From Acidobacteriota bacterium (GTDB taxonomy: Bacteria > Acidobacteriota > Vicinamibacteria > Marinacidobacterales > Marinacidobacteraceae), in contig JAJDUD010000008.1 in the NCBI GenBank assembly GCA_022826825.1, positions 11,643-75,642 of the forward strand: DNA of 64,000 bases. Reading direction: 5' to 3'. The translations under genes were made by a program, and so were the position numbers. Below the pieces are notes generated by a model. That model had not been told where the DNA came from. It searched no databases and saw nothing but the letters and a program-made list of their open reading frames with translations. Shown one piece after another: positions 3,690 to 52,381 of the stretch (position 1 is the first letter of the stretch; every line of letters begins with the position of its first letter).

Positions 3690-4316
3690 CTAAGCCGATT
3701 CCCGCTTCGAGAGGTCGAGATCGTGCTGCTTTCGGGGCAGGGCGAGTTCGTGGCCCTCCCGCGACGGCTCCAGATACGTGATGGACCAGTAGAAGTCGTC
3801 CAGTGGAACGAAGATTCCGTTCTCTTCGGCCCACTCGCGCATTCGTGGATTGCAGGCATGCGCCCAGGAGAGGATTTCGACTCTCCAATCACGCCGATGC
3901 ATCCTCTCGAGCGTACTGTGGAAACCGGAACCTTCGAGGTACCCCGCACCATCCCCCGTGAGCAGCACAACTGTCCCGGGATCGCCGTTGTGATCGAGCG
4001 CATCCTCCAGCATCTTCAATTGAAGATAACGGTCCGGGACTTCCTGCTCTCCGCGCGCCTGCTCCCCCCGATCGAAGAGTGAAACCTCGACACCCAAGCC
4101 CTCAATCCGGTTCCAGAGTTGGCGCAGTTCGGGCGGGACCGAGCCGGCGGCGACTGCCCGGGCGACCTCCCGGTCGGCGTGAGCGAGGCGAAACAGATTC
4201 TCGAAATGGACGCGCACGCGATAGCGCGCATCGGGACCCGCCTCCCGCTCCTCGGCGTGGCGCCGTGCCTCGATGAAGATGTTCGAGTTGTCCCAATAGA
4301 CAAAGACCGAGTTCAT
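3690..4316 (-). CDS. NYN-domain (LabA-like, PIN-related) predicted RNase
   Basis: N-terminal VFVYWDNSNIF and overall length are typical of NYN/LabA-like proteins. Confidence 0.55.
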   Translation of the reverse strand: MNSVFVYWDNSNIFIEARRHAEEREAGPDARYRVRVHFENLFRLAHADREVARAVAAGSVPPELRQLWNRIEGLGVEVSLFDRGEQARGEQEVPDRYLQLKMLEDALDHNGDPGTVVLLTGDGAGYLEGSGFHSTLERMHRRDWRVEILSWAHACNPRMREWAEENGIFVPLDDFYWSITYLEPSREGHELALPRKQHDLDLSKRESA

Positions 4317-4396: not shown

Positions 4397-5330
4397 GGAG
4401 GAGCGCGTGGCACGACTGTTCGTCGCCACGGCTTTGCTGTTCGGCGTTCCGGCCGGGGCGGCTGACGACGACGACCTGCCGCTCGTCGTCGAAGTGCGGG
4501 TCTTCGAGGTCCGGCGTCTGAACTCGGACTTCTCCCCGATCGAGGACCTGTCGTTCCTCGTGAACACCGATGGCTCTTCGGTCCAGGTCTCGGAATGGCT
4601 TGCGACCCTCGCCCGCCGGATCCCGGACGCCTACTTCGCCCAGCTTCTGACGTTGGGACCGGCGCCCGCCGAATCGGAAGCAGGCTGGACAGTCCGTCGG
4701 CGGGACGGGAGGCGAGCCATCCGGGCGCGATTCAGGCCGGTGCCTGACGAACCCCCATCAGCGGGTGAGCCGGCGGACGCTCCGGAGACGGGGAGACCGG
4801 AATCCCGCTTCCGGCTGGACTTCGACCTGCTCCGCGGCGGCGCCTCCGCCCAGCAGATCAGCGTGCAGAGCGCCATCGAACCCGGAATGACCCGGATGGT
4901 GAGCGGCCTCGACTTCGAAATCACGCTCAGCCGGTATCTCTCCTGGTTCCGCGAACCGGGCGACCTCCCCGCCCGGGAAGAACTCTACGAGAGCATCCGG
5001 GACCAGAACGTCTACCTGGCCTTCGGAATCACGTTCCGCCGCCAGGACCCCGCCCCGGCCCTCCCCGTGCGCCTCGAGCCACCCGAGGAACCGCGGTTCC
5101 GGGAGCTCCGCTCACCGCTCGTCGGGAACGCGGAGGGAACCCTGCGGCTCCGGGTGCACCTCGACGACCAGGGTCAGGTCGCCCACACCGAGATCCTCGA
5201 AACCACCCTCCCCGAAGTCACGCCGCGGGTCCTCGGCATCGTGTTCGGATGGCGCTTCCCGCACGCCGCGGGACGGGAGGGCCGGCTGTTCTTCCCGGTA
5301 CGGACCGTGCGGTTCGTTCCCTCCGGCTGA
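4397..5330 (+). CDS. secreted hypothetical protein, possibly with a TonB-C-like C-terminal domain
   Basis: Start moved to MEERVARLFVATALLFGVPAGAADDDD, a signal-peptide-like sequence. The upstream track portion is Arg/Gly junk. C-terminus ...LGIVFGWRFPHAA...FFPVRTVRF. Confidence 0.4.
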
Positions 5331-7874: not shown

Positions 7875-9170
7875 ATGGACATAACACTAGACGCCGACAC
7901 GAAGTTCCCCAACCCGGAGGACCCCGGCGTAGCGCCCCTGGCCATCAACGCCGGACGCCTCCGCGATTCGCTCGTCGCGCTCTCCCGCTTCGGCGCGCAC
8001 CCCGGCGGCGGCGCCCACCGGTTCGCCTTTTCGAAGGAAGAACTCGCGGCCCGCGCCTGGATCACCGGCGAGATGGAAGGCGCCGGACTCAGGGTGCGCA
8101 CCGACCCCGCCGGCAACCTCTTCGGCCGGCGCGAGGGCAAGGAGCCCCTGCCCGCCATCCTCTTCGGGTCCCACCTCGACACCGTGCCCCAGGGCGGCCA
8201 CTACGACGGAACCCTCGGCGTCCTGGGAGCGCTCGAGGTGCTGCGGGCCCTCGGCGAGCAACGGATCGAGACCCGCCACCCGCTCGAAATGGTCGTCTGG
8301 TGCGACGAGGAGGGCGCCCATTTCGGGAACGGCCTCTTCGGGAGCCGGGCGGCGACCGGGGCCGTCCACGACGGCGAACTGGACCGGGTGGGCGAAGACG
8401 GACTCAGCCTCCACGAATGGATCGAGCGCTACGGCCTCGATCCCCGAGCGCTGGAGCGCGCCGTCCTCGACCCGCGAAAGATCCGGGCCGCCTTCGAGCT
8501 CCACATCGAGCAGGGCGGGAACCTGGAACGGGAAGGCTGCAGGATCGCGGTGGTGGAAGGCATCGTCGGGATCCACCGTTTCGAAGTGAACGTCGGCGGA
8601 TTCCAGAACCACGCCGGAACCACCCCGATGGCCGAACGGAAGGACGCCATGCTCAGCGCCGCGCACCTGATCGTCGCCGTCCACGAGGAGATCCGCGCCC
8701 TGCCGGGCGACCAGGTCGGCAACGTCGGCCAGCTCGCCGTCTCGCCGGACGCCGCCAACGTGGTGCCGGGCGCCGTCCGGTTCCCGATCGAACTGCGGGA
8801 CCTGAAGGACGAGGTGGTGGACGACATCATCGAGCGGATCGGCGCGCGGGGCGCCCGGCTGGCGAAGGAGACGGGCTGCACCGTCGGGATCCACCGGACG
8901 CTCCGCGAGCCGCCCGCCGACATGGATCCCGGGCTGCGGGCGCTCCTCTACAAGGTCGCGCGGGAGGCGGGACACGAGCCGCTGTCGCTCCCGAGCCGCG
9001 CCGGGCACGACGCCCAGAACACGGCCCGCCACGGCATCCCCACGGCGATGATCTTCGTCCCGAGCCGGGCCGGGATCAGCCACTCCCCCGAGGAATGGAC
9101 GTCCTGGGAAGACTGCGCCCAGGGCGTGGACCTCCTCCGCCGCGCGGTCCTCGCGGTGGATGGGGCGTAG
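7875..9170 (+). CDS. M20-family Zn-dependent amidohydrolase, allantoate amidohydrolase or N-carbamoyl-L-amino-acid hydrolase type
   Basis: GSHLDTVPQGGHYDG and CDEEGAHFG metal-binding motifs. 431 aa is typical of AmaB/HyuC/AllC enzymes. Confidence 0.7.
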   Translation: MDITLDADTKFPNPEDPGVAPLAINAGRLRDSLVALSRFGAHPGGGAHRFAFSKEELAARAWITGEMEGAGLRVRTDPAGNLFGRREGKEPLPAILFGSHLDTVPQGGHYDGTLGVLGALEVLRALGEQRIETRHPLEMVVWCDEEGAHFGNGLFGSRAATGAVHDGELDRVGEDGLSLHEWIERYGLDPRALERAVLDPRKIRAAFELHIEQGGNLEREGCRIAVVEGIVGIHRFEVNVGGFQNHAGTTPMAERKDAMLSAAHLIVAVHEEIRALPGDQVGNVGQLAVSPDAANVVPGAVRFPIELRDLKDEVVDDIIERIGARGARLAKETGCTVGIHRTLREPPADMDPGLRALLYKVAREAGHEPLSLPSRAGHDAQNTARHGIPTAMIFVPSRAGISHSPEEWTSWEDCAQGVDLLRRAVLAVDGA

Positions 9171-9545
9171 GGAGCGCCAGTCTCCAGACTGGCATCGCGG
9201 CCGCAGGCCGCGAAACGCCCATGTCCGCGTCCTGCTGCACACCCCGCCGGGCATGAGAATGGCGGAAACGGCCTGGAACGCCGACCTCCGGTCGGCACAG
9301 CGGGCCGAAGGCCCGCGGGCGACGGGCCGCTATTCCCCTTGGGCGACAGAGATCCGGGAGCATCTCCTCGGCCCAGTTGCACCGCGAGAGAGGAGCATCC
9401 CGCAGGTCAGCGCCCCGCCGTGCGCTGCGCAGTCGCGCAGCGCGTGCCGACCAGAGGTCGGCGTTCCAAGCCGGCGGCGCCACCAGGGCGCGTTGGCCGA
9501 CGCGTCGGACCGCATTTTCACAACAACTGGTGAAGAGCGGCGCTC
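9171..9545. mobile_element. composite MITE-like palindromic repeat (inverted-repeat end plus B-module), a near-duplicate of 51990-52310
   Basis: Begins GGGAGCGCCAGTCTCCAGACTGGCATCGCGGCCGCAGGCCGCGAAAC straight after the TAG stop. The interior ...GCGGAAACGGCCTGGAACGCCGACCTCCGGTCGGCACAGCGGGCCGAAGGCCCGCGG...GCATTTTCACAACAACTGG aligns with 51990-52310. Confidence 0.6.
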
Positions 9546-10601
9546 CTAGGCGTGGAGGAACACTTCCCGCCCCAGCGCAGACGACTCCTGAATCGCCTTC
9601 ACCACCCGCAGCGACCGGAGCGCCTCCTCGCCGGTGAGCACCGGGTCACGCCCCTCGCGCACCGCGTCCGCCATGTCCTGGAGCTGCACCCGGTGGCGCG
9701 TCTGCGGGTAGGCCCAGGGGTCGTCCGTGTCCACCCAGTCGGGCGTCTCTGGCAACCCCTCCGGCCCCGGCACGCCTTCCACGTCCCAGACCAGGAACTG
9801 GTCGTACTGGGCGTTCGCCACCACTGTCCCCCGCTCGCCGTGGATCTCGAGCCGCGAGCGGAGCGCCGGACGGATCGCGGTGGTGCTCTCCACCACCCCC
9901 ATGGCCCCGTTCTCGAAGCGCAGCAGCGCGGTCGCGAGGTCCTCCACTTCGATGCTGTGCCGCCGGGTGGCGGTGCGCCCGGTCACCGATGCCACCGGGC
10001 CCACGAGGTGCTGCAGCAGGTCGATGATGTGGATGGACTGGGTCATCAGGCAGCCGCCACCCTCGAGCGCCGCGGTGCCGCGCCACGCCGCCCTCCGGTA
10101 GTAGGCCGGGGAACGGCTCGCCTTGTCGAAGGCGTCCGCCAGCCAGATCTCGCCCAGCCCGCCGCCGCCGAGCAATTCCCGCAGTTTGTCCGCGACCCGT
10201 CCGAAGCGCATCTGAAAGATGACGCCGAGACTCACTCCCCGCTTCCGGCAGTGCTCGACCATCCGCTCGCCCGCTTCGACGGTGGCTTCGAGGGGCTTCT
10301 CCACCAGCACGTGACGGCCGGCGTCCGCCGCCGCCAGGGTCATCTCGGCGTGGAGGCCCGTAGGGGTGGTCAGGCACACCACCTCCACTTCCGGATCGGC
10401 GATCAGCTCCCGGTAGTCGGTGTAGGCCCGCGGGTTCCCGTGCTCGGCGGCAAACGCGCGCACCCGCTCCGGGTCCCGCGAAGCGACCGCGGCCAGGAAC
10501 CCACCCTCCACGAACGCCAGCTCGCGGGCGTTGAAACCGCCCGCCATCCCGGTCCCGATCAGGCCGAACCCGACCGGCCGGCGCTCCCCGGCGCCCGGCA
10601 T
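9546..10601 (-). CDS. Gfo/Idh/MocA-family NAD(P)-dependent oxidoreductase
   Basis: N-terminal Rossmann GFGLIGTGMAGG, plus the EKP motif (VLVEKPLE) and the characteristic C-terminal domain. Confidence 0.75.
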   Translation of the reverse strand: MPGAGERRPVGFGLIGTGMAGGFNARELAFVEGGFLAAVASRDPERVRAFAAEHGNPRAYTDYRELIADPEVEVVCLTTPTGLHAEMTLAAADAGRHVLVEKPLEATVEAGERMVEHCRKRGVSLGVIFQMRFGRVADKLRELLGGGGLGEIWLADAFDKASRSPAYYRRAAWRGTAALEGGGCLMTQSIHIIDLLQHLVGPVASVTGRTATRRHSIEVEDLATALLRFENGAMGVVESTTAIRPALRSRLEIHGERGTVVANAQYDQFLVWDVEGVPGPEGLPETPDWVDTDDPWAYPQTRHRVQLQDMADAVREGRDPVLTGEEALRSLRVVKAIQESSALGREVFLHA

Positions 10602-15450: not shown

Positions 15451-16146
15451 TCAGAAGTTGCGAGGCTCGAACCCGGGCGGACTCACGATGCTGGCGCTCG
15501 ATCCCACCACGCGAATCAGGAGCAGACCCCGCCGGAGCGCCATCGCGGGTGCGGATTCCGTCGCCGTCAGGTAGGCCATGGCACCGTGAACCGCCTCTCG
15601 CGAACAGTCCGGGAAGAGATCGCGGAAACGCTCCATCTTGCCGACGAACTGCCGGACGTACTCCGGCCGAAGCGTCGTCTTGACCTCGACTCCCACGGAG
15701 ACAGCGTCTCCGAGGGCCACCAGATCCATCTCGGCGACCGTCATCCCGTTCCGCGATATTCCCCGCCGCCGGACCAGGTCACCGTAAACCGGATAGCCGC
15801 CCTTCTGGAGCAGGGGAACGAGATCTCCCTCGGTCAGCGCCTCCATGAGTCGTCCGAAGCGCGCGTCGCCGTCACCCATCATGCGGTGGACCGCCCGACG
15901 CAACGCTTCCTGCGCGGCGGTTTCTCGTTCGTCGCGTTCCTTCCGCTCCTGCCGCCAGGCCGCTTCCTGCGCCTCGCGTTCCCGACGCCGGGCCGCTTCC
16001 TGCGCCTCGCGTTCCCGACTCCGGGCCGCTTCCTCAACCTCGAACCGACGGCGCCATTCCTCGTGCTCACGGATTTCCTGCGCCATCTGGCGCAGGATGC
16101 GCCATACCGACTCGGGGCTGGAGCGGAGGCGACGTTTTCGGGCCAT
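15451..16146 (-). CDS. hypothetical protein with Glu/Arg-rich coiled-coil repeats and a C-terminal PD-(D/E)xK-nuclease-like region
   Basis: Internal ATG (MARKRRLRSS). The upstream part of the track ORF overlaps the TPR gene in a different frame. Contains the tandem repeat REREAQEAARR/REREAQEAAWR. The nuclease-like call is weak. Confidence 0.4.
   Translation of the reverse strand: MARKRRLRSSPESVWRILRQMAQEIREHEEWRRRFEVEEAARSREREAQEAARRREREAQEAAWRQERKERDERETAAQEALRRAVHRMMGDGDARFGRLMEALTEGDLVPLLQKGGYPVYGDLVRRRGISRNGMTVAEMDLVALGDAVSVGVEVKTTLRPEYVRQFVGKMERFRDLFPDCSREAVHGAMAYLTATESAPAMALRRGLLLIRVVGSSASIVSPPGFEPRNF
15905..16050. repeat. 33-nt tandem direct repeat (about 2.5-3 units) inside a CDS
   Basis: GCCGCTTCCTGCGCCTCGCGTTCCCGAC(G/T)CCGG occurs twice in perfect tandem, flanked by degenerate units. 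It encodes the 11-aa E/R repeats. Confidence 0.55.
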
Positions 16147-16168: not shown

Positions 16169-17506
16169 TCAGCGGCCCGGTTCGGGGTGCTTCGCCCGCA
16201 GCGCGGTGACGAAGCCCTCGGGTACTGCGGCGCCCAGATCCTGCGCCTCGTGGACCGCGCTCCACGCTTCCGCGAACCGGTCGAGTTCGGCGAGCGCAAC
16301 CGCCGCCAGCACCCGTGAGGCCCCGTCCTCCGGATCGAGCCGGCGAGCGCGTTCCAGCGCGGCGAGCGCCGGCTCGAAACGGCGCTGGCGGAGCAGCACG
16401 TCGCCCAGCGCAGCGTGGGTCCGCGGCTCATCGGGCCGCGATTCGAGCGACGTACGGAACTCGTATTCCGCGGCGGGAAGGTCCCCCTCGCGCGCCCGGA
16501 GCACGCCCAGCCCGAAGCGGGCGAGCGCCTGTCCCGGGTCGAGCGCCACCGCGTCGCGGTACCGGGGCTCCGCCTCGCCGGGCCGGCCCCGCTGGTCCAG
16601 CACCGCGCCGAACTCGGCGAGCACGTCGGCGTCCCGGGGACGGATCTGGGCGAGATCCCGATAGAGGATCTCGGCATCCTCCAGGCGGCCCGCGCGCCGC
16701 GCCGCCCGGGCGCGCTCCAGCAGGCGCGGGGAAGAGATGTCCCGCTCGCTCATCCGGAAGTGGATCGGGTCCTCGATCGGAGGGAGACCGGCGTCCGGCC
16801 TCCCCTCTCCGGCGCTGAGGACCTCTTCGGCGCGCTCCCGGTCTCCCGCAGCGTTCCAGGCGCGCACGAGCGCCGCGCGCACGCCGCCGGCATCCGGCGC
16901 CAGCGCCAGCGCCCGCTCGAGGAGGGAGATCGCCTCGCGGGCCTCCCCGGCGGCCAACTCGACCGAGCCGAGCCGAAAGAGCGCGAGCGCGGCGCCGGGA
17001 TCGAGGCTGAGGGCTTCCCGATAGGCCTGCCCGGCGCTCGTCCGGTCGCCGAGTTCCTCGCGCAACTCGCCAAGCAGGATGAGGCTCGGCGGATAGCCCG
17101 GATGTTCCTCGATGCCCGCGGCGAGGACTCGCGCCGCTTCCGCGGGGTCGGCGCCGCGACTGGCGTGAGCCAGCAGGTAACGCGCCGTGAGCCGGGACAC
17201 GTCTCCGGCTGGTAGAAGTTCGAGCGCCGCCCGGTAGCACTCCGCCGCCTCGGTCACGAGCCCGTGGGCCTGGAGAGTTTCGCCGTACTCCAGCCAGCGC
17301 GCCGGGTCTTCGGGCCGGGTCCGCAACGCTTCCACGAGGTCGTCCAGGCGTACGAGGATCTGCGGCTCCATACCGCGGCTGTCCACCAGGGGAGGCACCG
17401 GGGACTGCCCGAACGCCCCGTGGGCGGCGAACACGAGTACGACACCGCCGAGGAGGCCACTGCGTCCGGCCGTCGGGATCACGCCCTGTTCACCGTCGTG
17501 CGGCAC
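16169..17506 (-). CDS. secreted tetratricopeptide-repeat (TPR) protein
   Basis: Signal-like N-terminus. About eight Ala/Leu/Glu/Arg-rich 34-aa TPR-like units (AxxxYRxALxLDP pattern repeated). Confidence 0.6.
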   Translation of the reverse strand: MPHDGEQGVIPTAGRSGLLGGVVLVFAAHGAFGQSPVPPLVDSRGMEPQILVRLDDLVEALRTRPEDPARWLEYGETLQAHGLVTEAAECYRAALELLPAGDVSRLTARYLLAHASRGADPAEAARVLAAGIEEHPGYPPSLILLGELREELGDRTSAGQAYREALSLDPGAALALFRLGSVELAAGEAREAISLLERALALAPDAGGVRAALVRAWNAAGDRERAEEVLSAGEGRPDAGLPPIEDPIHFRMSERDISSPRLLERARAARRAGRLEDAEILYRDLAQIRPRDADVLAEFGAVLDQRGRPGEAEPRYRDAVALDPGQALARFGLGVLRAREGDLPAAEYEFRTSLESRPDEPRTHAALGDVLLRQRRFEPALAALERARRLDPEDGASRVLAAVALAELDRFAEAWSAVHEAQDLGAAVPEGFVTALRAKHPEPGR

Positions 17507-17785
17507 GTAGAACGGCAGAAGCTGACACCGAGGGCTCTAGCTGGTGCCCGAAACGCCATCTCCCCAATTCTGGATCCGTCGGGCATACATGTGAGATCGA
17601 AAATGCACGGTCCGAGCGCTATCTTGCGCCGGCTGCTCACGAAGGCAGGTGTTCATTCTTGCAGCCTACAAGGGCACCCTTTAGGATAGCGGATCAAATG
17701 AGCGGGCAGGTGACGCGTGGACCGGGACACACTCCGGAGCCCGAACGCGGGTCAGGTGTGACCGTAGAACAGACAGCTATGCGGA

Positions 17786-18826
17786 GTGACGGCGGCTAGG
17801 ATGCACCCATTGGACGTCGTTCTCAGCGTCGTGTTTTGTGTCCTTTTCCTTGCCGCAATCGGGCTCAGTTTCCGAAGCGGGTCCCGAGTCACTGTTGGGA
17901 CGCTAGTGGGTGGAGGATTGGTAGTCGTCGCCGTTGTTGTCCTGCCTCTCGAGAGCTTGGAATGGAGTCCTGACGGTGGAATCAGAGTCCAGACGCGGGG
18001 GCCACGAATGCGGAATGTTGAAATCTCTGTGCACAGCGTGGCGGAGGGTATTGACACGGAGCAGCTCCACGTGTTTCTTGTACCAGTTCAACATAAAGCA
18101 GTCACCCAGACTAGAAGCGGTGACACGTTCTTCTCGTTCGAAAATGTGCCAGAGGGAGCGTACAACGTGCTTCTAGCGGACCGCGCAGGGCACTTTCTGT
18201 TGGAACCTCGTACAGTGGCAGGCGACCCTACATTGGATTCAATTGACCGGTTCCCGCGGGGAATCAACGTAAGCGGGGAAGTAAGAGAACTTACAGGGCG
18301 TCCCCTGGCAAATGTCGCAGTTGGTCTGGGAGACAACGTCGCGTGGACCAGGGCCGATGGATCCTCTGGTATCGAGGGAGCCCAATCCGGCGAACGTCAA
18401 CTGCGGATACTAGGTCGTGCACAATCACTAGAGCCGATCGAGCTGGGATCAGAAGATGTGGATGCCGGAGTTCTCTATTGGCCCGACCCCGTGCGAGACG
18501 CCCAGTTTTGCGAAGAGATTCAAGTGACTGAGGATTCGGAAGGCGAGAAGAGGTGGGTATTGGTTGACCCGTCACAGACGTTTTCCCCGGACGTTGAACG
18601 TGTGTACTTCTATACACGTGTAGTGGGTGCTACAGCACCAACACAGATAATACACCGGTGGATTCATGACGACACACCTGTTGACGTCCCTCTTGATATC
18701 GAGAGCAACGATTACCGTACAAATAGTTCTCGTCAAATCGATCGAAAGCAAGGCGAGTGGAAAGTACAGGTATTGTCGAAGTCCGGAGATATTCTCGCAA
18801 CCAGGGCTTTCTGGGTTGGAGAATAG
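17786..18826 (+). CDS. membrane-anchored protein with a DUF2914-like C-terminal domain, inside a lower-GC islet
   Basis: N-terminal TM helix followed by beta-rich domains. The tail (VERVYFYTRVVGA...IIHRWIHDDTPV...GEWKVQVLSKSGDILATRAFWV) resembles the DUF2914 signature. GC is markedly lower than the flanks. Confidence 0.4.
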   Translation: MTAARMHPLDVVLSVVFCVLFLAAIGLSFRSGSRVTVGTLVGGGLVVVAVVVLPLESLEWSPDGGIRVQTRGPRMRNVEISVHSVAEGIDTEQLHVFLVPVQHKAVTQTRSGDTFFSFENVPEGAYNVLLADRAGHFLLEPRTVAGDPTLDSIDRFPRGINVSGEVRELTGRPLANVAVGLGDNVAWTRADGSSGIEGAQSGERQLRILGRAQSLEPIELGSEDVDAGVLYWPDPVRDAQFCEEIQVTEDSEGEKRWVLVDPSQTFSPDVERVYFYTRVVGATAPTQIIHRWIHDDTPVDVPLDIESNDYRTNSSRQIDRKQGEWKVQVLSKSGDILATRAFWVGE

Positions 18827-18919
18827 GTCAATCTATAACACGCACTGCTTGCCCACTAACCTACGAGTAGGCGGACTCCGGCGAACCACAAATGGCACGA
18901 CTCTGACACGGTCGCGCCC

Positions 18920-19333
18920 TTGTTTCCCACGATGAAGAAGCTACCATCGTGGGTGTTACCTACTCTGGTTGTAGGAGTGCTCCTTGTTCTGTCCTCCCTC
19001 TTGCTGGTGCGCCTATGGAGTTCGGTGGTCCTTCGGGCTCCATTTTTCGGTCGTTTGGAACCCGCCACGCTCTCGGCCCTTTCCCTCCAAGTCGTCTTAC
19101 TGTCCGCGTTCATTACGCTGTCGAGCTTCATGGTTGCCATGATCGCGTTTCTTGGCTACCGCCAGATCAAGGAGGCTGCGGTGCAGAAAGCCGTCACCGC
19201 AGCAGTGGATAAGTGCCTGGAGCGAACCGACACTGCCGTAAGTGAACGTCTGAATGAGGTTCTTGGATCCAGGGTAGAAACCGGGCCCTCTCCAGAACCA
19301 GAACTAACCGAAGAGGTCTCCGAGGAGGTCTAG
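18920..19333 (+). CDS. small two-TM membrane protein with an acidic coiled-coil tail; true start may be MKKLPSW at 18932
   Basis: Two hydrophobic helices, then a KEAAVQKAV...EEVSEEV tail. The stop lies 2 nt before the ImmA-like gene start. Confidence 0.4.
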   Translation: MFPTMKKLPSWVLPTLVVGVLLVLSSLLLVRLWSSVVLRAPFFGRLEPATLSALSLQVVLLSAFITLSSFMVAMIAFLGYRQIKEAAVQKAVTAAVDKCLERTDTAVSERLNEVLGSRVETGPSPEPELTEEVSEEV

Positions 19334-19335
19334 GG

Positions 19336-19818
19336 ATGGACAAGGAAGAATTGCTGGAAGTCATCCGGTCCCACCAGAAGGAGGCTCCGGTACCCGTCTT
19401 TAACATTGCGCGAGCGATGGGACTGACGGTACTTCGTGCCCGTTGGCCCGACGAGTGGCAGGACAAGATTTCTGGGCAAATACAACGAATCCCTGAGACA
19501 GATCAATACCGGATTCTTCTGAACGCGGCGCATCCACTAACCCGGCAACGGTTTACCTTGGCCCACGAGATCGCCCACTTCGTTCATCACAAGCATCTGA
19601 TCGGAGATGGCATCACTCACGACGCCCTGTACCGAAGTCCACTGTCCACACCGCTGGAGCGAGAAGCAAACCGGCTCGCCGGGAACATTCTGATGCCTTG
19701 GAGCTTGCTTTGGCCCAAGATGTTTAGAGCAGAAACGGACGTGCGGGAGTTAGCGGCGGAGTTCAAGGTTTCTCCAGTAGCAATGGCCATCCAGACCGGG
19801 ATTCCCTACGAGCCGTGA
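19336..19818 (+). CDS. ImmA/IrrE-family (M78) zinc metallopeptidase
   Basis: HEIAHFVHH HEXXH motif in the ImmA/IrrE context, ...EREANRLAGNILMP..., about 160 aa. Confidence 0.65.
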   Translation: MDKEELLEVIRSHQKEAPVPVFNIARAMGLTVLRARWPDEWQDKISGQIQRIPETDQYRILLNAAHPLTRQRFTLAHEIAHFVHHKHLIGDGITHDALYRSPLSTPLEREANRLAGNILMPWSLLWPKMFRAETDVRELAAEFKVSPVAMAIQTGIPYEP

Positions 19819-20340
19819 CCGCCTGAAGCTAGCCGCGAACTGCCGATTTCGGCACAAAAGCAAATGCGAGACCAGAAGATGTCGGCCTAGAAGGCAGCCT
19901 GCCGGGTTGATGCGATAGGTAGCGAGATCCTCGAACGGAGTCCGCAATGATCCTCTGAAGTCTTGCCCCGACGTCATGCGTGAACTGGCCTGCGGCTACT
20001 TGCTTCGCGCTTTCCACGGTTTGCGGGCTGCCCCTAGTGCCGCATCTAGGACACTTGGCGGATCCGTCGCTGCAGCCGTCAGCAATAACCTGACACCTAG
20101 AGCAAATCAACACTAGTGCTATGCCATCAGCCATTGCGCTCCGCCACCAGAGTCGTCATCACCTACCACCATGGAGAGGATCCCAAGAGAACCCTTCTGA
20201 TTGCGCGTCTCTAGCACGCTGAACGGGAGAAGTCAAACGCGCGACTGTCTAGTCCAGGTGCAGGGCCTCCACAGCGAGGCCTGTATAACGCCAGCGGTAA
20301 ACACCGCACTACGCTTCTTCCGGAAGGCATCAGGATTCTG

Positions 20341-22479
20341 CTATTTCGCTCGGCCGAGAGCGGGCCACAGCGTGACGACGAATCGCTCTTCACGGACCGG
20401 AATGCGCACACGGCCCCGCATTCCGTCGTAAAGCGCGTGTTCCGCGCCGGTGCTGCTCAACAAGACCTCCGGCAGGTCCGCATACACGAGGGCCAGCGCC
20501 CCATCTTCGGTCCCCGTGGGCAGGAGTTGGCCCATAAGCGCTCGCGCCTCTTCCGCGCTGATTACCTCCGGGCTGACCTCGCGGGCCTCGAGATGGAAGC
20601 GGCTTCCCGGGAACTGTTCCAGTTCGGCCACCACCGGGATCCCGGACGCGAGCAGGGGACGGAAGTTGCCCGGCACGGCGGCCACGATCTCGAAACCCGC
20701 ACGGGCGGCCCGCACCGTAGCCACCGTCTGGCCGGGATTCACGAGCGTCCCCGGCCTTACCCGTACGTCCGTCAGCACCCCACCCACCGGCACGATCAAC
20801 TGCCGTTCTTCAAGATCCGTCCTTGCCTGTTCGCTCGCGCCGCGCAGGGCCGCGAGCCCATTCCCCACCGTGGGATCCTCCGGGTTCCGCAACAGCCGCA
20901 CCAATGCATCCTCGTACTCGTGCTCTAGGCGCCGCACCTGTGCGAGTTCCGCGTGGTCGTAGAGCGTGCCGATGACGTCCCCCGGAACGACCTCCGTCTG
21001 GGGAGCGATGTGGATGGCCGCCACCGTGCCCGCCTCATTCGCCACCACAGGCACCCGTCCTTGGCTGTGGACGACCGCCATCCCCTCCGCGTACTCGGTG
21101 GCCGTTCCGAAGATCAGGAACGCCGCAAACGCGAGCAGCAGTGCCGCCATGCCGCCCACGATCCAAGATCCCCACCGCTCGGAAACGTTCAGGATGGCGC
21201 TCGGGCTCTCGGAGCGCCGCTGTTCCGCGATCGCTTCGGCGCGGAACACGGATGAGTCCACTCCGACCTCCCCTTGAAGCCGGTGGTATTCCCGAAGGAC
21301 AGCGAGCGGCGGAGCGAAGTCGCTGGCGAGCCGGCGCGCCGTATCCAACAGTTCCGGTCGGAGATGGTCGTGGGCGTCGGCCGCGTGGCACGCGAGCACC
21401 CCAAACACCGTCCCCGAATGGTCCCGGATGGGAACTGCCATCAGTCCGTGTCCGGCCCCTGGCACGAGATCCAACTCCGGATCGAAGAACACCGCGTCCT
21501 CCACGCGTTCTTCGAGCACCGCCACCCCAGACCGCGCGACGTAGGCGATCATGCCGAGCGCCGCGCTATCCGCGAACTCCTCCTGCTGCACGGCGTGGGG
21601 TCCCAGAAGAACCTCCGCCCAATCGTCGTAGGCGTACACCGTCGCCGTGATGTCCGGCATTCGCCGCTCCGCCTGAGCCGCCAAGTCCCGCAACGCGCTC
21701 TGCGCCGCACGTCTCTGTCCACGACTCGTGGCGTCGTACCACGCGAATGCCGGGAACCCGTCCTCGGTGTCCGGTCTCGGGTGAACGAGTTCGCGAAAGA
21801 CCCGCCGGAAGACAGCATTTTCGAGCGCCGCCACCGCCAGCGGGCCGAGGCGGTCCGGGTCCGGCCACCCACTGCATGCGAAGAAAACCTCGCCGGAACC
21901 GACGATGTCGCTCCAGCGGTCGGACATCACGCCCCCGCTTGCGACGAGAATCGGCCGAAGTCCGGGCAGTCGTCGGACGGTGGACCGCACCGACGCGACA
22001 TCGGGTGCCCGGTCTGGCGCACAGCCCAGCAGCAGGGCTCCCACGCTCTGCGGGTTCTGTACTTCCCGCGCGTGGACGATCTCGATCCCCTGTAGGGCCG
22101 GCGTCGCGCGACAGGGCTCGATCGCCCGTTCGTCATCCACGGCGAGGACCACCGGGACCCGGTTCGCAGCCGCGAGGGGAGAACTCGTCCAATCCTCCAC
22201 CAGCGTGAGAACCAACATCTGCACCGCGTTCTCACCACTGCCGTGCGCTGCACCCAGCCGCAGGTCCGCAACTACGGACCAAGCGCTGCCGTTGCCGGAA
22301 CCGAGACGGGCCGTGATCTCCATTCCTTCCATCGCCCCGTCGCGCACCATCACCGCCTCCGCATCCCGGACACACACCCACACCACGCCGGGACCCAGAC
22401 AACATACCCACGCGGGTAATGAAGCACCACCTGCTACCCGAAGCTGCGCAGGCCCTGAGACCCGGCGCCAGCCCTTCAC
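20341..22479 (-). CDS. fusion protein: N-terminal cytoplasmic region with a pseudo-receiver-like segment and a GAF domain, then a TM helix and a CvaA/LcnD/HlyD-type bacteriocin membrane-fusion domain
   Basis: The C-terminal 320 aa begin SVFRAEAIAEQRR...WIVGGMAALLLAFAAFLIFG, the classic N-terminus of CvaA/LcnD-type membrane fusion proteins, followed by a long periplasmic coiled-coil/beta region. The preceding ~390 aa include a GAF-like block (MIAYVARSGVAVLEERV...GLMAVPIRDHSGTVFGVLACH). 4-bp overlap with the upstream ABC gene. Confidence 0.6.
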   Translation of the reverse strand: MKGWRRVSGPAQLRVAGGASLPAWVCCLGPGVVWVCVRDAEAVMVRDGAMEGMEITARLGSGNGSAWSVVADLRLGAAHGSGENAVQMLVLTLVEDWTSSPLAAANRVPVVLAVDDERAIEPCRATPALQGIEIVHAREVQNPQSVGALLLGCAPDRAPDVASVRSTVRRLPGLRPILVASGGVMSDRWSDIVGSGEVFFACSGWPDPDRLGPLAVAALENAVFRRVFRELVHPRPDTEDGFPAFAWYDATSRGQRRAAQSALRDLAAQAERRMPDITATVYAYDDWAEVLLGPHAVQQEEFADSAALGMIAYVARSGVAVLEERVEDAVFFDPELDLVPGAGHGLMAVPIRDHSGTVFGVLACHAADAHDHLRPELLDTARRLASDFAPPLAVLREYHRLQGEVGVDSSVFRAEAIAEQRRSESPSAILNVSERWGSWIVGGMAALLLAFAAFLIFGTATEYAEGMAVVHSQGRVPVVANEAGTVAAIHIAPQTEVVPGDVIGTLYDHAELAQVRRLEHEYEDALVRLLRNPEDPTVGNGLAALRGASEQARTDLEERQLIVPVGGVLTDVRVRPGTLVNPGQTVATVRAARAGFEIVAAVPGNFRPLLASGIPVVAELEQFPGSRFHLEAREVSPEVISAEEARALMGQLLPTGTEDGALALVYADLPEVLLSSTGAEHALYDGMRGRVRIPVREERFVVTLWPALGRAK

Positions 22480-24710
22480 GAATCGTCTCCTGTAGTTCCG
22501 CCCTGCTCAGGCGCCCGTACGAGCGACGCGTATTCACCGTCCAGACTCAGCAGGTCTCCGTGTCTGCCCTCCTCAACGAGATGTCCCTCCTTCAGGACGA
22601 AGATACGGTCCGCGTTGCGGATTGTGTTCAGCCGCTGGGCGATCACGATCCTCGTGCAAGCCAGCCGCGCCAGCCGCGCCTGGATCTTCGCCTCCAGCTT
22701 CGTGTCCAGATTGCTCGTCGCTTCGTCCAGAATCAACACCGGAGGCCCGGTGGCCACCGCCCGCGCCAGCGCCAGACGCTGCATCTGTCCTCCCGAAAGG
22801 AGGAACCCGCCATCGTAGAGCATCGTGTCGTAACCCAGAGGCAGTTTCGCGATGTCATCGTGTATGGAGGCAAGTCGCGCGGCCTCAATCACCTCCGCGA
22901 GCGACATGTCCGGGTTGCCGAGCGCGATGTTCTCGCGAACAGTATCCGCCGCATACCAGTCAGTCTGTGTCACCGTGCCGATCCTGCGACGCACCTCCCG
23001 AAGGTCCAGGGTGGCGAGATCGGTTCCCGAGTACAACACGTGCCCGTTCGTGGGTTCGTAGAGTCCGAGCAACAGTTTCGCCACCGTGGACTTCCCCGCC
23101 CCCGACGGCCCGACGAACGCAACAAATTCCCCCGGGTGGATCGTGAAGGAAACGTCCTGCAAGATGTCCGGGCCCGAATCGCTGTAGCGAAACGTAACGT
23201 GCTGCATCGAGACCGTCCGTGGGTCCACATCCGTCCCAGACCCACGCACCCGACGCTCCGGTTCTGTCTCGATCACGTCCTCAATCCGGTCCACGTAGCT
23301 ACCGAGCAGGTAGATGGACGAAATCGTTCCCACTAGTTTCGACAGCGGTCCCAGGAACCCCATCGCGAAGGCGTTCATCGCCAACATGACCCCAAGGGTC
23401 ATGTGGCCGTCCAGGACGCGCATTGCCCCAACGATGAGAATCAGCATGCCGCCCACGCCCGAGAGCGCACCAGTGATGGCCCCCACGGTCGCGTTGAGAC
23501 GGTTCTGCTCGATCCCGATGTTCAACTCCTTCACGAACAGGTCCGTCCATTTCCGGGCCACCTCGCGCTCCGCGCCAATGGATTTGAGCGCCTCCATTCC
23601 CGAGAGCATCCGCACTTGGTAGCTCCGTGCCTCGGCCTGCCGTTGTATCGACTCCGAAACGAGTTCGCGCAGACGAATTCGCGTCACCGCGAACACCGTG
23701 ACCCGCAGCACGCCGAGCAGCACCACGAGCCCGGCGACCACCACGTCCGTCAGCAGCATCAGGACCAGGTACGACAGCACGAACAGCCCGTCGAGAACCG
23801 CGGAGAATGCCGTTGAGGTCAGCGCACTGCGGATCTGCACATGGCTGTTCATCCGCAGCATCAGGTCACCCGACGAGCGGTTCTGGAGATATGAGAACGG
23901 CAGGTCCATCAGCCGTTCAACGAACGATACGGTCAGCCGGGCGTCAATTCGCGACATCACCTCCACCGCAAGCCGCGAACGTACGAAGGAGAACAGCGTC
24001 GAGAACCCGGCGATCCCGATCAGCGCAATGGCCACCGTCAGCAGCAGTCCCTGGTCTTCCCGAGGTACGATTCGGTCCACTAGTAACGCCGTGAACAGCG
24101 GAATTGCCGTTCCGAGCACCTGGATCGCTGCCGACATCGCGAGAAGCTGCGGCAGGTGTCCGGAGCGCAGGATGACTCGCGCGTAATCACGCAGGACACC
24201 GCGTCCACCGGCCTTTTGCGTCCGGAACGTGTCCGTCGGCCACAACTCCACCGCCACCCCGGTGAAGTTGCGGCTGACCTCCTCCCAGGTCACGATCCGG
24301 CGGCCCGCCGCCGGATCCATTACCCGGATCCCCCGTTTCACGACCCGGTCCAGCACCACGAAGTGGCTAAACCGCCAGTGCAGGATCGCGCCGCGCTGCA
24401 GGCGGCGCAGATCCTCGATCGCATCCACCCGCAGGCCCCGTCCAGCGAGCCCGTGCTGCTCGGCGAGATGCAGCAGATCCGCGGCGTTTGTCCCATCGCG
24501 GCCCGCGGTCAGGTGGTCGCGGAGCGTATGTACGGGAATGTGTTTGCCGTGGAACGCCAGCACGCTCGCCAGGCCGGCGAGACCGCACTCCGTCGCGCCG
24601 GTCTGCTGGACCACCGGCACGGACCGTGGGCGACGGAGCGACCCGATCCCCGTGACCCGCGGTAGCGAGCCCAGGAACGACGGACGCGAGGGCTCAGCCA
24701 TCGGTGTCAC
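22476..24710 (-). CDS. lanT: peptidase-C39-domain ABC transporter (double-glycine leader-cleaving peptide exporter, LanT/CvaB-like)
   Basis: N-terminal C39 domain with catalytic Cys (QTGATECGLAGLASVLAFHG), a six-TM ABC exporter domain, Walker A GPSGAGKST, signature LSGGQMQR and Walker B ILDEATS. Confidence 0.85.
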   Translation of the reverse strand: MTPMAEPSRPSFLGSLPRVTGIGSLRRPRSVPVVQQTGATECGLAGLASVLAFHGKHIPVHTLRDHLTAGRDGTNAADLLHLAEQHGLAGRGLRVDAIEDLRRLQRGAILHWRFSHFVVLDRVVKRGIRVMDPAAGRRIVTWEEVSRNFTGVAVELWPTDTFRTQKAGGRGVLRDYARVILRSGHLPQLLAMSAAIQVLGTAIPLFTALLVDRIVPREDQGLLLTVAIALIGIAGFSTLFSFVRSRLAVEVMSRIDARLTVSFVERLMDLPFSYLQNRSSGDLMLRMNSHVQIRSALTSTAFSAVLDGLFVLSYLVLMLLTDVVVAGLVVLLGVLRVTVFAVTRIRLRELVSESIQRQAEARSYQVRMLSGMEALKSIGAEREVARKWTDLFVKELNIGIEQNRLNATVGAITGALSGVGGMLILIVGAMRVLDGHMTLGVMLAMNAFAMGFLGPLSKLVGTISSIYLLGSYVDRIEDVIETEPERRVRGSGTDVDPRTVSMQHVTFRYSDSGPDILQDVSFTIHPGEFVAFVGPSGAGKSTVAKLLLGLYEPTNGHVLYSGTDLATLDLREVRRRIGTVTQTDWYAADTVRENIALGNPDMSLAEVIEAARLASIHDDIAKLPLGYDTMLYDGGFLLSGGQMQRLALARAVATGPPVLILDEATSNLDTKLEAKIQARLARLACTRIVIAQRLNTIRNADRIFVLKEGHLVEEGRHGDLLSLDGEYASLVRAPEQGGTTGDDS

Positions 24711-24740
24711 CTGTCGTCTTCCGGATCGGAGCGTCGGCGA

Positions 24741-25688
24741 TCACTCTTCGAGAGATCCGGAACAGTCGAGAGCTAGCTCACCTTCGGCCAGTTGCGGAAC
24801 GGCCAGCACGCGCACCGGAGTTCCGGCCGGGAGTTCGTCCGAGCACAGGAGCGCCTCAAAGGTGTGCAGGAGCGTGCGAGGATCCAGTTCGGGAGAGGCG
24901 TGTATCACGAACCCGAGCACCGGCTCATGGTCCTCGAAGGTCACGGTGATCGGCGCGCCGGCAGAGAGTCCGATGGTCGCCTCGGGCGGCGCCGCGAAGC
25001 GAACGTGCCATTCGCCCGCTTCGATCGCCACCACGGGCGCCCCCCGCGTGTCGTACATCCCAGGCGAGCCGTACACCTGGTCCACCACGCCGCCTAGCGG
25101 TGCGCGCAGCGTCGCCTTGGCCGCTTCGGCGCGCGCCTGTTCCGCAGCCGTTCGCGCAGCCCCAAGTCGCGCCTCGGCGGACTCCAGACGCGCCCGGGAC
25201 ACCTCCACTTCGGCCTCCACTTCCTCGAGTTGTTCCGTAGAGAACAGCTCGGAGCGTCCCTTGCGCCGCGTGTAACGGCTGGCGGCCTGCTCCATCTCCA
25301 CCTGTGCAACCCGCAGCGACGCCTCCACTTCGGCGACTGCTGCCTGCGCCACTGCAAGAGTCCGGTCCACCGATTCAGAGTCGAACCGCGCTACTGGTTG
25401 GCCCTCCTTTACCTCGTCCCCCGGCTGTACGAACCGCTCCAGTAACCGGGCGTCAAACGGCGCCGGCACAACAATCCGCCGCTGCCGTACCACGACCCCG
25501 ACATGACCGTAGTTCGCGGGAAGCAGGCCCGGGACTGGCCTACCCACACTCACTCGTCGCTGCGACCCGGATGGCACCGGACCCGGACGCCGCCGTTCCG
25601 GTTCGCTGCCGTCGCCACAACCGACCCAGGCAGCGAAGGCGACCAATCCCGTCGCCAGAAACGCGCCATGTGCTGCTCTGTAGCTCAC
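24741..25688 (-). CDS. HlyD/RND-type periplasmic adaptor lipoprotein
   Basis: GTG start gives a signal with lipobox AAWVGCG. Coiled-coil hairpin, then ATLRAPLGGVVD, a typical adaptor beta-barrel motif. The start overlaps the lanB stop by 4 bp. Confidence 0.6.
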   Translation of the reverse strand: MSYRAAHGAFLATGLVAFAAWVGCGDGSEPERRRPGPVPSGSQRRVSVGRPVPGLLPANYGHVGVVVRQRRIVVPAPFDARLLERFVQPGDEVKEGQPVARFDSESVDRTLAVAQAAVAEVEASLRVAQVEMEQAASRYTRRKGRSELFSTEQLEEVEAEVEVSRARLESAEARLGAARTAAEQARAEAAKATLRAPLGGVVDQVYGSPGMYDTRGAPVVAIEAGEWHVRFAAPPEATIGLSAGAPITVTFEDHEPVLGFVIHASPELDPRTLLHTFEALLCSDELPAGTPVRVLAVPQLAEGELALDCSGSLEE

Positions 25689-28600: not shown

Positions 28601-28930
28601 CATCCGCGCGAAGTACTGGACGAGCGCTCGTTCCATCCGCGCCCGCCGCCGCGTAGGTGCTTGGTCGCCCAACCCGGACAGGCGCTCCGCGAGCACTGGA
28701 CTGGCGACCCGCAGCGCATCGGCCGCGTGCGGCAACGCCAGAGCCTCCACGAGAGTTCGCCGCAGCCGGTTCCTCGTGCCTGCTCCGTCACCCGCCGCAG
28801 GGGTTGCAGTTTGGCCACTGGCTCCCCAAACAGCAAAAGTGGCGGTGGGCAGTAAGGGCGTCCGTAGCACGAAAAACCCGGATGGCCGATAGCTGTCGGC
28901 GAAACCCGATGCCCCCGTCTCAGCTGTCAC
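25685..28930 (-). CDS. lanB: class I lanthipeptide dehydratase LanB (glutamylation plus elimination domains)
   Basis: 1081 aa. N-terminal SGFFVLRTPLLP is the canonical LanB opening. The C-terminal WFFIRYGDPEHHLRVRFRG matches the SpaB_C elimination domain. Confidence 0.85.
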   Translation of the reverse strand: MTAETGASGFADSYRPSGFFVLRTPLLPTATFAVWGASGQTATPAAGDGAGTRNRLRRTLVEALALPHAADALRVASPVLAERLSGLGDQAPTRRRARMERALVQYFARMCDRCTPFGLFAGVSVGNVGELTRLRLAGRDRYRRRSALDQAQVAKLVGSLLRQQGVRKNLRYRPNDTIAAIAGGYQYVEARQRGPENRHEMAFLENDEALSAALERRSAKAMPLAGLHAALTLAITDADVNSDDIDEYLDDLIESQVLVPELVPAVVGSDPLDQILQALAASEALSESATPVRQLREALDQLDEHGVAAPPEAYAAVNAVWTGPLGQKKTERLLQVDMFKETEELQLAEEVVDEVLRGADTLHRLMTRLPDPLRDLKSRFRERYETREVPLAEVFDPERGLGVPGPDLRPRQSGSPLLAGLNIGAEGNRGKSPQQGVPDALMERLLDLRGEAPASLELDDDLLTRLATSVQSPLPAAVALHFDLVAASEEAVQSGAYRILYHGGFGPSGGRLLGRFCDLDPVLLERVRGHLRDEEALEPGVVYAEIVHTPEGRVGNVVRRPHVRDIELSCSGNSRLTGPKRLTVDDLLLSLEGSSFRLRSRQDGRIVRPRLTSAHNYRRSSGMYRFLCALQNDGTAPGFSWNWGVLNGLPFLPRVTRGRAIYALARWMVGRNRPEYKAIAKAKKPAAREDALLALVRELKLPRFVRLVDGENRLLLDLDNPMCVAVLADHGARRPTLVLEETLAEDLEGCVSGPEGTYRNEFILPLVRRQRAAPSVREDGVKQRNVTAPIASRAFIPGDEWLYYKLYAAAGTADRLLREVVAPLAALHGATATGEPWFFIRYGDPEHHLRVRFRGGPDARRALEERMSALLQPFLATGAVHRVSLDTYVREVERYGGGRGIELAEAWFRADSVAALQVVGVLDGVEDEVLRWKAVAMGFDRLLADFGLDYGERNQVVAGARESFGQEFGVGPSVRRRLARRLRAERRDIQAAVTGYPDDDSRFAGFDAVLQQRSEDTKEVVRQFRDLAESGDLECPLEELLQTLTHMHANRLFPMSARAHELVLYDFLSRTYRSLVARAKR

Positions 28931-28963
28931 CTTGGCCGCGGTTTCACAAACTCGGAACTAGAC

Positions 28964-37045: not shown

Positions 37046-37064
37046 GGGGAGCTCAAGGAGCGCA

Positions 37065-37284
37065 GGGAGCGCCGGTCTTCAGACCGGCATCGCCCGCACA
37101 GCGGGCGAAACTCCTGGGCTTCACTTCGCCGCATGGCGCCCCCGTCAAGGCGAGTGGCGCGACGACAACTGCGCGCGCCTACTTCGCTTTCGCCATCTTC
37201 GTTTCGAGTCCCCGCAATGTGGCGCGATGGCGCCGGGAGTTTCGCGGCCTACGGCCGCGATGCCAGTCTGAAGACTGGCGCTCC
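37065..37284. mobile_element. MITE-like palindromic element (about 220 bp) with two-hairpin terminal inverted repeats
   Basis: Left end GGAGCGCCGGTCTTCAGACCGGCATCGCCCGCACAGCGGGCGAAACTCC. Right end GTTTCGCGGCCTACGGCCGCGATGCCAGTCTGAAGACTGGCGCTCC. The ends are reverse complements and each holds two stem-loops. Inserted about 20 nt after a TAG stop. Confidence 0.65.
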
Positions 37285-37340
37285 TTGCTTGTCCTGCGCA
37301 GCACCGTCCCCGTTTGGGGTAGCGCGGTGACCCGGCGCGC

Positions 37341-38660: not shown

Positions 38661-38734
38661 TGTCGGGTCGCTCCGTCCGCCTGGGATGAACTACCGATCG
38701 AGCGTCGCCACGACCACTGAATGGACGACGGGAG

Positions 38735-52310: not shown

Positions 52311-52381
52311 CACAGGCTGTTAAGGCTGCTCGTCCGGATGGCGCCGCCCGCCTGCGTCACTCCCGTGAGTACGATTGCCCG

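Follow-up and report, generated by a model that had tools for sequence, protein, structure and literature searches.

Nested, non-coding repeats arranged in layers around a ~300-bp module in an Acidobacteriota genome

In the 64,000 nucleotides of Acidobacteriota DNA analysed here (the whole stretch is called the window), a module of about 300 bp occurs twice in the company of other repeats. This module is a discrete element, termed the core, with conserved asymmetric ends, double-hairpin arm units similar to repetitive extragenic palindromic (REP) sequences, and a variable centre. [quoted passage not shown] Besides the core, two families are involved: MITE1 with terminal inverted repeats (TIRs) of ~50 nt, and T-MITE, which supplies the right flank of one of the two copies and was absent from an earlier note on this DNA.

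That note had described 9171–9545 and 51747–52310 as a MITE terminus followed by a shared module. The pairwise alignment of both intervals revealed a common block, 9213–9530 against 51962–52276, with 87.1% identity over 318 columns (blastn, E = 8e-109), clear of the 70% set there as the lower limit for the module. The same block was returned by a MAFFT alignment and by a repeat search of the window. Both copies, A and B, are intergenic, and their flanks are unrelated. The arm motif GGAACGCCGRCCNNNGGYCGGCAC occurs five times in the window, compared to 0.10 expected occurrences. The parts of both copies are the following, with OL and OR as the left and right end modules and U1 and U2 as double-hairpin units (a prime marks the inverted orientation).

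9171–9216, + strand: U1 unit GGAGCGCCAGTCTCCAGACTGGC-ATC-GCGGCCGCAGGCCGC-GAAAC as left terminus of a MITE1-type element; abuts the peptidase stop codon TAG.
9213–9530, + strand: core copy A, 87% identical to copy B; nhmmer profiles of the left and right end match with E = 2.8e-29 and 1.9e-28.
~9213–9269, + strand: end module OL of copy A.
9270–9318, + strand: left arm unit U2 of copy A, with hairpin 1 within 9275–9298 and hairpin 2 at 9299–9318.
~9319–9415, + strand: variable centre of copy A.
~9416–9482, + strand: inverted right arm unit U2′ of copy A, with hairpin 1 within 9444–9467.
Up to 9530, + strand: end module OR of copy A, closing with ...CATTTTCACAACAACTGG.
9531–9549, + strand: remnant of a MITE1 right terminus, TGAAGAGC-GGCGCTCC (9531–9546), and TAG (9547–9549); the boundary ...GGCGCTCC/TA is shared with the orthologous gap in locus L085.
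51747–51945, + strand: near-complete MITE1 (U1 to inverted U1′), last hairpin missing, directly upstream of core B; blastn against the MITE1 at 37062–37285 gives matches at 5–53 (88% identity) and 174–203 (90%).
51946–52276, + strand: core copy B; left-end and right-end profiles match with E = 1.8e-29 and 1.1e-30.
Parts of copy B, + strand: left tip GCACCCCCACCGGGAT (51946–51961), OL, U2 (52024–52047), centre, U2′ (52191–52214), and OR ending with CAACTGG (52270–52276).
52277–52322, + strand: T-MITE right arm GCCTCGCCGCTCTCGGCGCTCACgtcactttctCCACAGGCTGT followed by TA (52321–52322); 45 nt with 82–84% identity to basic T-MITEs (blastn) and a match at 52319 in a fuzzy TIR search.

Copy A has a MITE1 end on either side, GGAGCGCC... 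at 9171 on the left and ...GGCGCTCC at 9539–9546 on the right, with TAG outside each of them; the TAG at 9547–9549 repeats that at 9168–9170 and may be a target-site duplication. The terminus upstream of the core measures 46–50 nt; between 9171–9220 and the right terminus of MITE1 at 37235–37284, complementarity amounts to 94%. Within the core, the arms at 9260–9298 and 9444–9482 are 85% complementary. The left junction is formed by GAAAC, which the U1 unit and OL have in common, and the same U1-to-OL junction was found in L032, L071 and L003. As L032 represents a non-orthologous locus, this variant has propagated and is not a one-off rearrangement. Copy A spans the whole gap of 375 nt between a peptidase M20/M28 gene (+ strand, stop 9168–9170) and a convergent GFO/IDH/MocA oxidoreductase gene (− strand, stop 9546–9548). 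Both stop codons touch the element: the TAG of the peptidase gene abuts its first base, and the CTA of the oxidoreductase gene consists of the last base of the element and the flanking TA. Since the latter stop codon is made partly of element sequence, the insertion may have reshaped the C-terminus in comparison to the orthologue at the empty site in L083.

The description of a MITE terminus joined to the module holds for copy A; copy B is preceded by a near-complete MITE1. Its left tip GCACCCCCACCGGGAT is missing from copy A and matches core tips in other genomes. The right limit of 52310 proposed previously is about 10–12 nt short, as the repeat does not stop there: up to 52320 it forms an arm belonging to another element, and TA comes next (52321–52322; ...CAGGCTGT/TAAGG). 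The junction of core and arm, CAACTGG/GCCTCGCCGCTCTCGGCGCTCAC...CCACAGGCTGT/TA, is that of L078 and L114, where the core is found inside a T-MITE at a defined position. To the left of copy B the corresponding T-MITE half is absent and the truncated MITE1 abuts the core tip. The neighbouring genes are an amidase gene (+ strand, ending at 51728) and a DUF1028 gene (+ strand, GTG at 52382).

The core has ends of its own. On the left, the tip CCCCCACCGGGAG leads into OL (...CCCCCACCGGGAG-AAACGCCCATG..., also ...GAAACGCCCATGATCGGGTCCTCCTGCACACCCCGCCGGGCATGAAAATGGCGG); on the right, OR (...GCATTTTCACAGCAACTGG; GGCGGCGCCATC...GGACTGCATTTTCACAGCAACTGG) leads into the tip AACTGG (CAGCAACTGG). Loci of relatives, given here with L numbers, were obtained by scanning GTDB species-representative genomes with the arm motif. 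This yielded at least 81 tiles, with few exceptions from Ca. Marinacidobacterium, Vicinamibacteria and related Acidobacteria metagenome-assembled genomes (MAGs), a set with biased genome sampling and picked by the arm motif itself. Near-complete module copies among the listed tiles showed 68–76% identity, and five or more genomes (Vicinamibacteria and Ca. Marinacidobacterium) display the same architecture at loci that are not orthologous. In an alignment of six copies the left end (OL and arm unit) and the right end (inverted arm unit and OR) are conserved, while the centre is unalignable between genera. Profile searches located at least 20 OL and at least 23 OR ends, always in matching orientation, and the complete cores measured 199–499 nt. 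Carriage by phages was discarded: the modules are nearly missing from viral contigs, where two motifs gave a single isolated match each and a third motif gave no match. Thus, the notion of a modular, nested repeat system in place of a single element could be substantiated: the module is separate and has its own ends, it occurs in several genomes and in different host repeats, and its arm unit is also found alone.

The modules do not code for proteins. All reading frames are disrupted by indels, and no match to a Pfam domain was obtained; a conserved small open reading frame in OL (ATG...TGA, 11 codons) was discarded by eye, its frame being broken by a 1-nt indel in L078. All three families are non-coding and stay below about 600 bp, as is usual for MITEs (MITE1 ~224 bp, T-MITE 180–215 bp, core 219–500 bp).

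An unbiased scan of metagenomes with the OR signature gave 65 contigs, on which most matches lie within ~200 nt of a contig end. Twelve complete cores on these contigs measure 205–207 nt from the start of the OL profile to the OR end, or ~219 nt with full tips, and contain only one arm unit. Nine of these compact cores were aligned and are ~95% identical from CCCCCACCGGGAG to CAGCAACTGG (CAACTGG); their flanks diverge and they occupy different T-MITE positions. The left flank ends with GGCC, CGCC or CCCC in nine of ten compact cores. Short direct repeats (CGC...CGC, GCCG...GCCG) are present at some core sites and ambiguous at others.

T-MITE, the host repeat in these cases, is 180–215 bp long with a TIR of ~30 nt (RCAGCCTGTGGTGRAACCC..., RCAGCCTGTGGTG...) and reaches a very high abundance among the relatives. 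Inverted end pairs 117–250 bp apart were found in Ca. Marinacidobacterium and Vicinamibacteria genomes, e.g. at L013 1942–2120, L025 2587–2783 and L041 7045–7259, together with about 25 more. The window holds one degenerate arm only (52277–52320). Of 64 T-MITE ends, 44 are preceded by TA at positions −3 and −2, against a background of 1.2%, and the tetranucleotides TTAA (14), CTAA (9), CTAG (8) and TTAG (5) reveal a YTAR context. TA in such a context is a signature of IS630/Tc1-mariner insertion. The conserved flanks seen beyond OL and OR in different genomes belong to T-MITE.

The arm unit consists of two consecutive GC-rich hairpins in the order GGA[AG]C, hairpin 1 with a stem of 7 bp, hairpin 2, and G[AG]AAC. 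The termini of MITE1 are units of the same kind with GGAGC replacing GGAAC. Pairing in hairpin 1, counted with invariant bases as the only anchors, is fully Watson–Crick at the three variable stem positions in 247 of 280 units, compared to 62 on average and 83 at most with shuffled partners; the co-varying classes are ACC/GGT, GCC/GGC, GCT/AGC, GTC/GAC and GTG/CAC. For the hypervariable hairpin 2, 47 different stems were counted; even so, the stem is perfect in 170 of 199 units (29 in the shuffled control). The unit is found singly, in inverted pairs 135–495 nt apart, and in tandem arrays with a period of 84 bp. A true array at L009 1419–1906 comprises 5.8 copies of an 84-nt unit with the double-hairpin arm at 95% identity, and further ones are located at L077 ~4690–4990 and L084 ~4010–4180. 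Such arrays begin directly after a stop codon. Their spacing is similar to that of clustered regularly interspaced short palindromic repeats (CRISPR), but the 95% identity extends over the full 84-nt period and leaves no unique spacers, so that a CRISPR array was rejected. U1 units (e.g. 37261–37284) read ATGCC(A/G)GTCTGAAGAC... and resemble the DNA-uptake sequence of Neisseria, AT-GCCGTCTGAA. This likeness is probably a coincidence; for the U1 hairpin ATGCCGGTCTGAA an uptake function was discarded, as loop and stem co-vary freely between copies.

The window contains about 14 hairpin units. The pieces outside of copies A and B are as follows.

37062–37285, + strand: complete MITE1 and reference copy, ~224 bp, each TIR of ~50 nt being a U1 unit (repeat search, blastn).
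56807–57331, + strand: two more MITE1 copies, 56807–56985 and 57126–57331, in the convergent gap between a transketolase and a methyltransferase gene.
38733–38825, + strand: short relative of the core with the tips GGGAG ... AACTGG around two inverted OR ends (~75 nt), then CCGGCGTTCC (a U-type terminal piece), then TAG; the right-end profile matches both strands.
1032–1100, − strand: solo U-type double-hairpin unit, GCTGCGCTTTGCGCAGC and GTGCCGGTCTGAAGACCGGCGTTCC, plus the first OR bases GGCGGCGCC.
54581–54647, + strand: solo U2 unit, GGCTTGGAACGCCGGCCTCCGGCCGGCAC and hairpin 2.

Three of these correspond to places where parts of the module had been noted as standing alone. The interior reported at 1036–1100 is a real match and represents a solo arm unit (1032–1086, 77–84% over ~51 nt). 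Of the interval 54570–54790 only 54581–54647 matches, again as a solo arm unit (67–68 nt, 82%), and the remainder does not. The terminal palindrome placed at 38735–38830 is narrower, 38737–38815, and consists of two inverted right ends (31 nt at 90%, 57 nt at 77%).

Comparison with related genomes points to mobility. The window derives from an uncultured member of the Acidobacteriota. Between the genes flanking its repeats and their counterparts in the MAG "Acidobacteria bacterium p16x43bins.1" and in KELL22 metagenome contigs, identity is 95%; for a Vicinamibacteria MAG it is ~90%. One public contig with the peptidase gene ends inside copy A. At the orthologous site in L083 (TARA contig, peptidase 91% identical) the convergent genes abut with a gap of 0 nt. 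In L085 and L086 (87%) the gap holds 359 nt of other modules, namely one end of a T-MITE plus the right end of a MITE1 with the boundary GGCGCTCC/TA, and in L084 (89%) it holds 649 nt including tandem arm units. Upstream of the intact Zn_peptidase_2 gene, gene fragments of 35 aa with a weak Zn_peptidase_2 match were observed with a period of 347 nt (L085 1427–1534; L086 733–840, 1080–1187 and 1427–1534), which suggests tandem duplication of the gene end together with adjacent repeats. The gap after the amidase gene, where copy B is located, varies from 6 to 1449 nt among relatives and is filled by several MITE1 units in L090 and L091. No clean empty site for copy B was found among the nearest relatives, since their downstream gene order differs. 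According to crude gene calls based on the GC content of third codon positions, 37 of 70 repeat clusters lie in convergent gaps, which make up 27% of all gaps, and divergent gaps are depleted.

These results show three layers. The first is the REP-like two-hairpin unit, occurring singly, in 84-bp tandem, or as the inverted pair that ends the 220-bp MITE1. As second layer, the core with one or two hairpin units inserts into other repeats. The third is the ~200-bp T-MITE, a TIR element of YTAR sites flanked by TA left and right. Copy A could then be explained as a core that entered hairpin 1 of a MITE1 right terminus, with the MITE1 shell subsequently shortened by recombination at the shared GAAAC. 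In copy B the core lies within a T-MITE arm and adjoins another MITE1; the left half of the T-MITE would have been lost. The enzymes acting in trans would be encoded elsewhere: a DDE transposase of IS630/Tc1 type for T-MITE, possibly a HUH enzyme similar to the REP-associated tyrosine transposases (RAYTs) for the hairpin units, and some further enzyme for the core. Selection would tolerate the elements mainly at 3′ ends of genes, where any influence on the termination or stability of transcripts would be a by-product.

The last point is where the strongest alternative departs. The hairpin units might be REP equivalents spread by a single-copy RAYT (a Y1 HUH enzyme), and the mosaics might be kept as bidirectional terminators or mRNA stabilisers, so that they would benefit the host and not be purely selfish. 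Short extragenic palindromes with compensatory change, the occurrence as singles, inverted doublets and tandem arrays with ~14 units in 64 kb, the bias to 3′ ends and convergent gaps, and the strain-specific mosaics all agree with this explanation. On the other hand, no RAYT was found in the 1.25 Mb of fetched sequence, the 5′ box reads GGAAC or GGAGC instead of GTAG, and the elements show no promoter or terminator consensus and no T-tract terminators. The ends OL and OR and the TA flanks of T-MITE are left unexplained as well. Moreover, as the genes abut with an empty gap in L083, the element is dispensable at this site. We therefore regard a host-beneficial REP system as possible, and as clearly less probable than nested selfish repeats.

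In the related loci a much smaller insert with the same tips was detected. This mini-insert, (G)CCCCCACCGGGAGAACTGG, comprises 17–20 nt, is matched 110 times in the related loci and not once in the window, and corresponds to the left tip of the core joined straight to its right tip. At six or more T-MITE positions it is found in some copies and missing from others, with both orientations represented, and further occurrences lie within hairpins of arm units or next to them. Examples are L068 4477, L041 7119 and 7217, L046 2007 (reverse complement), L063 3574 and L059 3217; at times it forms tandem doublets or triplets. Compact cores take the same T-MITE positions. Between identical tips, the cargo thus amounts to 0 nt in the mini-insert, ~75 nt at 38733–38825, ~200 nt in compact cores and ~300 nt in copies A and B. 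Insertions bounded by these tips use many distinct GC-rich sites, always within other repeats, with seven or more T-MITE positions and three sites in or beside REP-like hairpins. In several cases the 20-mer seems to replace the dinucleotide AC in a GAAC context. The mini-insert might represent a still mobile derivative reduced by extreme deletion, or else a landing site or a scar. That core and mini-insert constitute a class of mobile DNA not described so far, with two short tips in non-inverted arrangement (~13 nt CCCCCACCGGGAG and 6 nt AACTGG) as the sole defining feature, seems doubtful to us. If the mini-insert were independently mobile, no smaller unit of mobile DNA would be known, and this would imply an unusual tip-recognising enzyme and pose a mechanistic puzzle.

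The core might be a palindrome-associated element of the type of the insertion sequences (ISs) IS200/IS605, or another HUH or rolling-circle element. Movement as single-stranded DNA would explain asymmetric ends without TIRs, subterminal hairpins, and insertion beside a short conserved SSCC flank. The ends of the core are indeed asymmetric and conserved in sequence, the left flank GGCC, CGCC or CCCC precedes nine of ten compact copies, insertions are located within the hairpin loops of other repeats or next to them, and hairpin units are found inside the core. Against this stand the short direct repeats CGC and GCCG at some sites, which are not made by Y1 transposition, and the mini-insert of 17 nt, which offers no hairpin to a Y1 enzyme. 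A TnpA or TnpB gene and an Rfam match similar to omega RNA were not found either. On balance an IS200/IS605-like core is unlikely. Integron attC sites were compared by eye as well and discarded, as the core tips do not fit RYYYAAC or GTTRRRY.

An RNA gene or RNA element is less probable still. The ~320-nt module would then be a structured non-coding RNA gene or a cis-regulatory RNA beside MITEs, with the long-range pairing of the arms as RNA stem. Both strands fold far better than shuffled sequences (z = −6.0 and −7.3), and the hairpins show compensatory change, but equal folding of both strands is expected of any inverted repeat. A search with Rfam 15 gave no family at the gathering threshold across the window, and only chance-level matches in both composites at E ≤ 1. 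The centre is unalignable between genera while the ends are conserved; for OL and OR this conservation concerns the primary sequence, with essentially no conserved secondary structure (alifold 0 to −1.8 kcal/mol) and no clear strand bias. Since hairpin 2 differs in sequence between the two arms of a copy, full-length pairing of the arms is impossible, and as the compact form lacks the left arm altogether, the long RNA stem is not a conserved feature. Presence/absence polymorphism and the location within other repeats also speak against an RNA. Finally, a local segmental duplication or gene conversion without any mobile element would agree with the presence of only two full copies in the 64-kb window and their divergence of 13%, but is hardly conceivable given an element with the same ends at unrelated loci in many genomes, a homogeneous multi-copy subfamily, and the unrelated flanks of A and B.

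For nested mobile repeats, several points weigh on the other side. No transposase with matching ends was detected in the ~1.25 Mb of fetched sequence; this negative is weak, because the fetched sequence includes no complete genomes. No far-spaced pair of T-MITE ends spans a gene, so that no DDE_3-type transposase sharing the TIR was found in the fetched loci. Reading frames bracketed by hairpin units encode ordinary enzymes or domain-less products, with no transposase and no Y1_Tnp domain among them, and E. coli RayT gave only chance matches in tblastn against the 1.25 Mb. The tips of the core, CCCCCACCGGGAG... and ...CAGCAACTGG, are not inverted repeats, only the internal arms being inverted; without TIRs and with short direct repeats at some sites only, the core misfits a canonical DDE MITE. 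The TA duplication at T-MITE ends is deduced from flank statistics, and the TA could instead belong to the TIR, as the comparisons yielded no unoccupied T-MITE site. The biased sampling of genomes and the crude gene calls mentioned above have to be added.

The only recurrent transposase in the tiles belongs to an IS of the DDE_Tnp_1 type. Its copies at L009 1–1379 and L078 6884–8000 are 99.9% identical, originate from Ca. Marinacidobacterium (OZ244986.1) and are inserted beside repeat clusters. As autonomous partner this IS was rejected: it adjoins the repeats, but its AT-rich termini are unrelated to theirs. Other recurrent protein clusters in the tiles turned out to be housekeeping paralogues.

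The window's own genes are housekeeping genes. Further observations concern regions apart from the repeats. At 15939–16042 a 33-nt unit, CCTCGCGTTCCCGACGCCGGGCCGCTTCCTGCG..., occurs in three tandem copies, probably inside a coding sequence. An island of low GC content (0.55, compared to ~0.70 elsewhere) extends from ~17500 to 20300 without reading frames of high third-position GC. Its frame at 19336–19818 (160 aa, HEIAH motif) resembles ImmA/IrrE-type metallopeptidases, and the island may have been horizontally acquired. On the minus strand, 25688–28957 encodes a class I lanthipeptide dehydratase LanB (Lant_dehydr_N and Lant_dehydr_C) in a region of lower GC content and negative GC skew, with large minus-strand neighbours at 20341–24740; this may be a lanthipeptide biosynthetic cluster.

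The repeats are of practical relevance, as they fragment short-read assemblies of a widespread uncultured lineage of marine and sponge-associated Acidobacteria and create strain-level differences at the 3′ ends of genes. Because spurious open reading frames are called across them, their recognition aids binning, scaffolding and annotation. Double hairpins maintained by compensatory change also invite a hunt for the responsible enzyme.

Among known systems, the REP sequences, BIMEs and REP doublets (REPINs) of gamma-proteobacteria, associated with RAYTs, are comparable in many respects: GC-rich extragenic palindromes with compensatory change, occurrence as singles, doublets and clusters, mosaics, preference for 3′ ends, and high copy number. 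In contrast, the units described here consist of two consecutive hairpins with a GGAAC/GGAGC box in place of GTAG (GT[AG]G), they also form the termini of a 220-bp element and the cargo of the core, no RAYT was found in the ~1.25 Mb, and the host belongs to the Acidobacteriota (Vicinamibacteria). T-MITE resembles the MITEs of IS630/Tc1-mariner elements, which duplicate TA in NTAN or CTAG, in being non-coding, in its length of 180–215 bp with TIRs of ~30 nt, and in the TA/YTAR context at both ends; it differs in that no parent transposase with its TIRs was found and in being represented by a degenerate half only in the window. With IS200/IS605-type elements and the REP-targeting IS1397 and ISKpn1 the core shares asymmetric ends, hairpins and the lack of TIRs, and core and mini-insert likewise occur in or beside the hairpin loops of palindromic repeats. 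Unlike these, the core is without any transposase gene, possibly has short direct repeats, and shows no recognisable arrangement of guide and hairpin. The pneumococcal BOX element (boxA-B-C) and the Correia elements or intergenic mosaic elements (NIMEs) of Neisseria are similar in their intergenic location, interchangeable modules, variable number of internal units, and combinations that differ between strains. They have no sequence relationship to the repeats of the window, whose modules are nested insertions of separate families and not one element with variable modules. Our literature search returned no paper that mentions Ca. Marinacidobacterium or describes MITEs in this lineage. What is found here is a layered system of non-autonomous families nested in each other, previously undescribed in the lineage and belonging to a phylum whose mobile repeats have hardly been studied.

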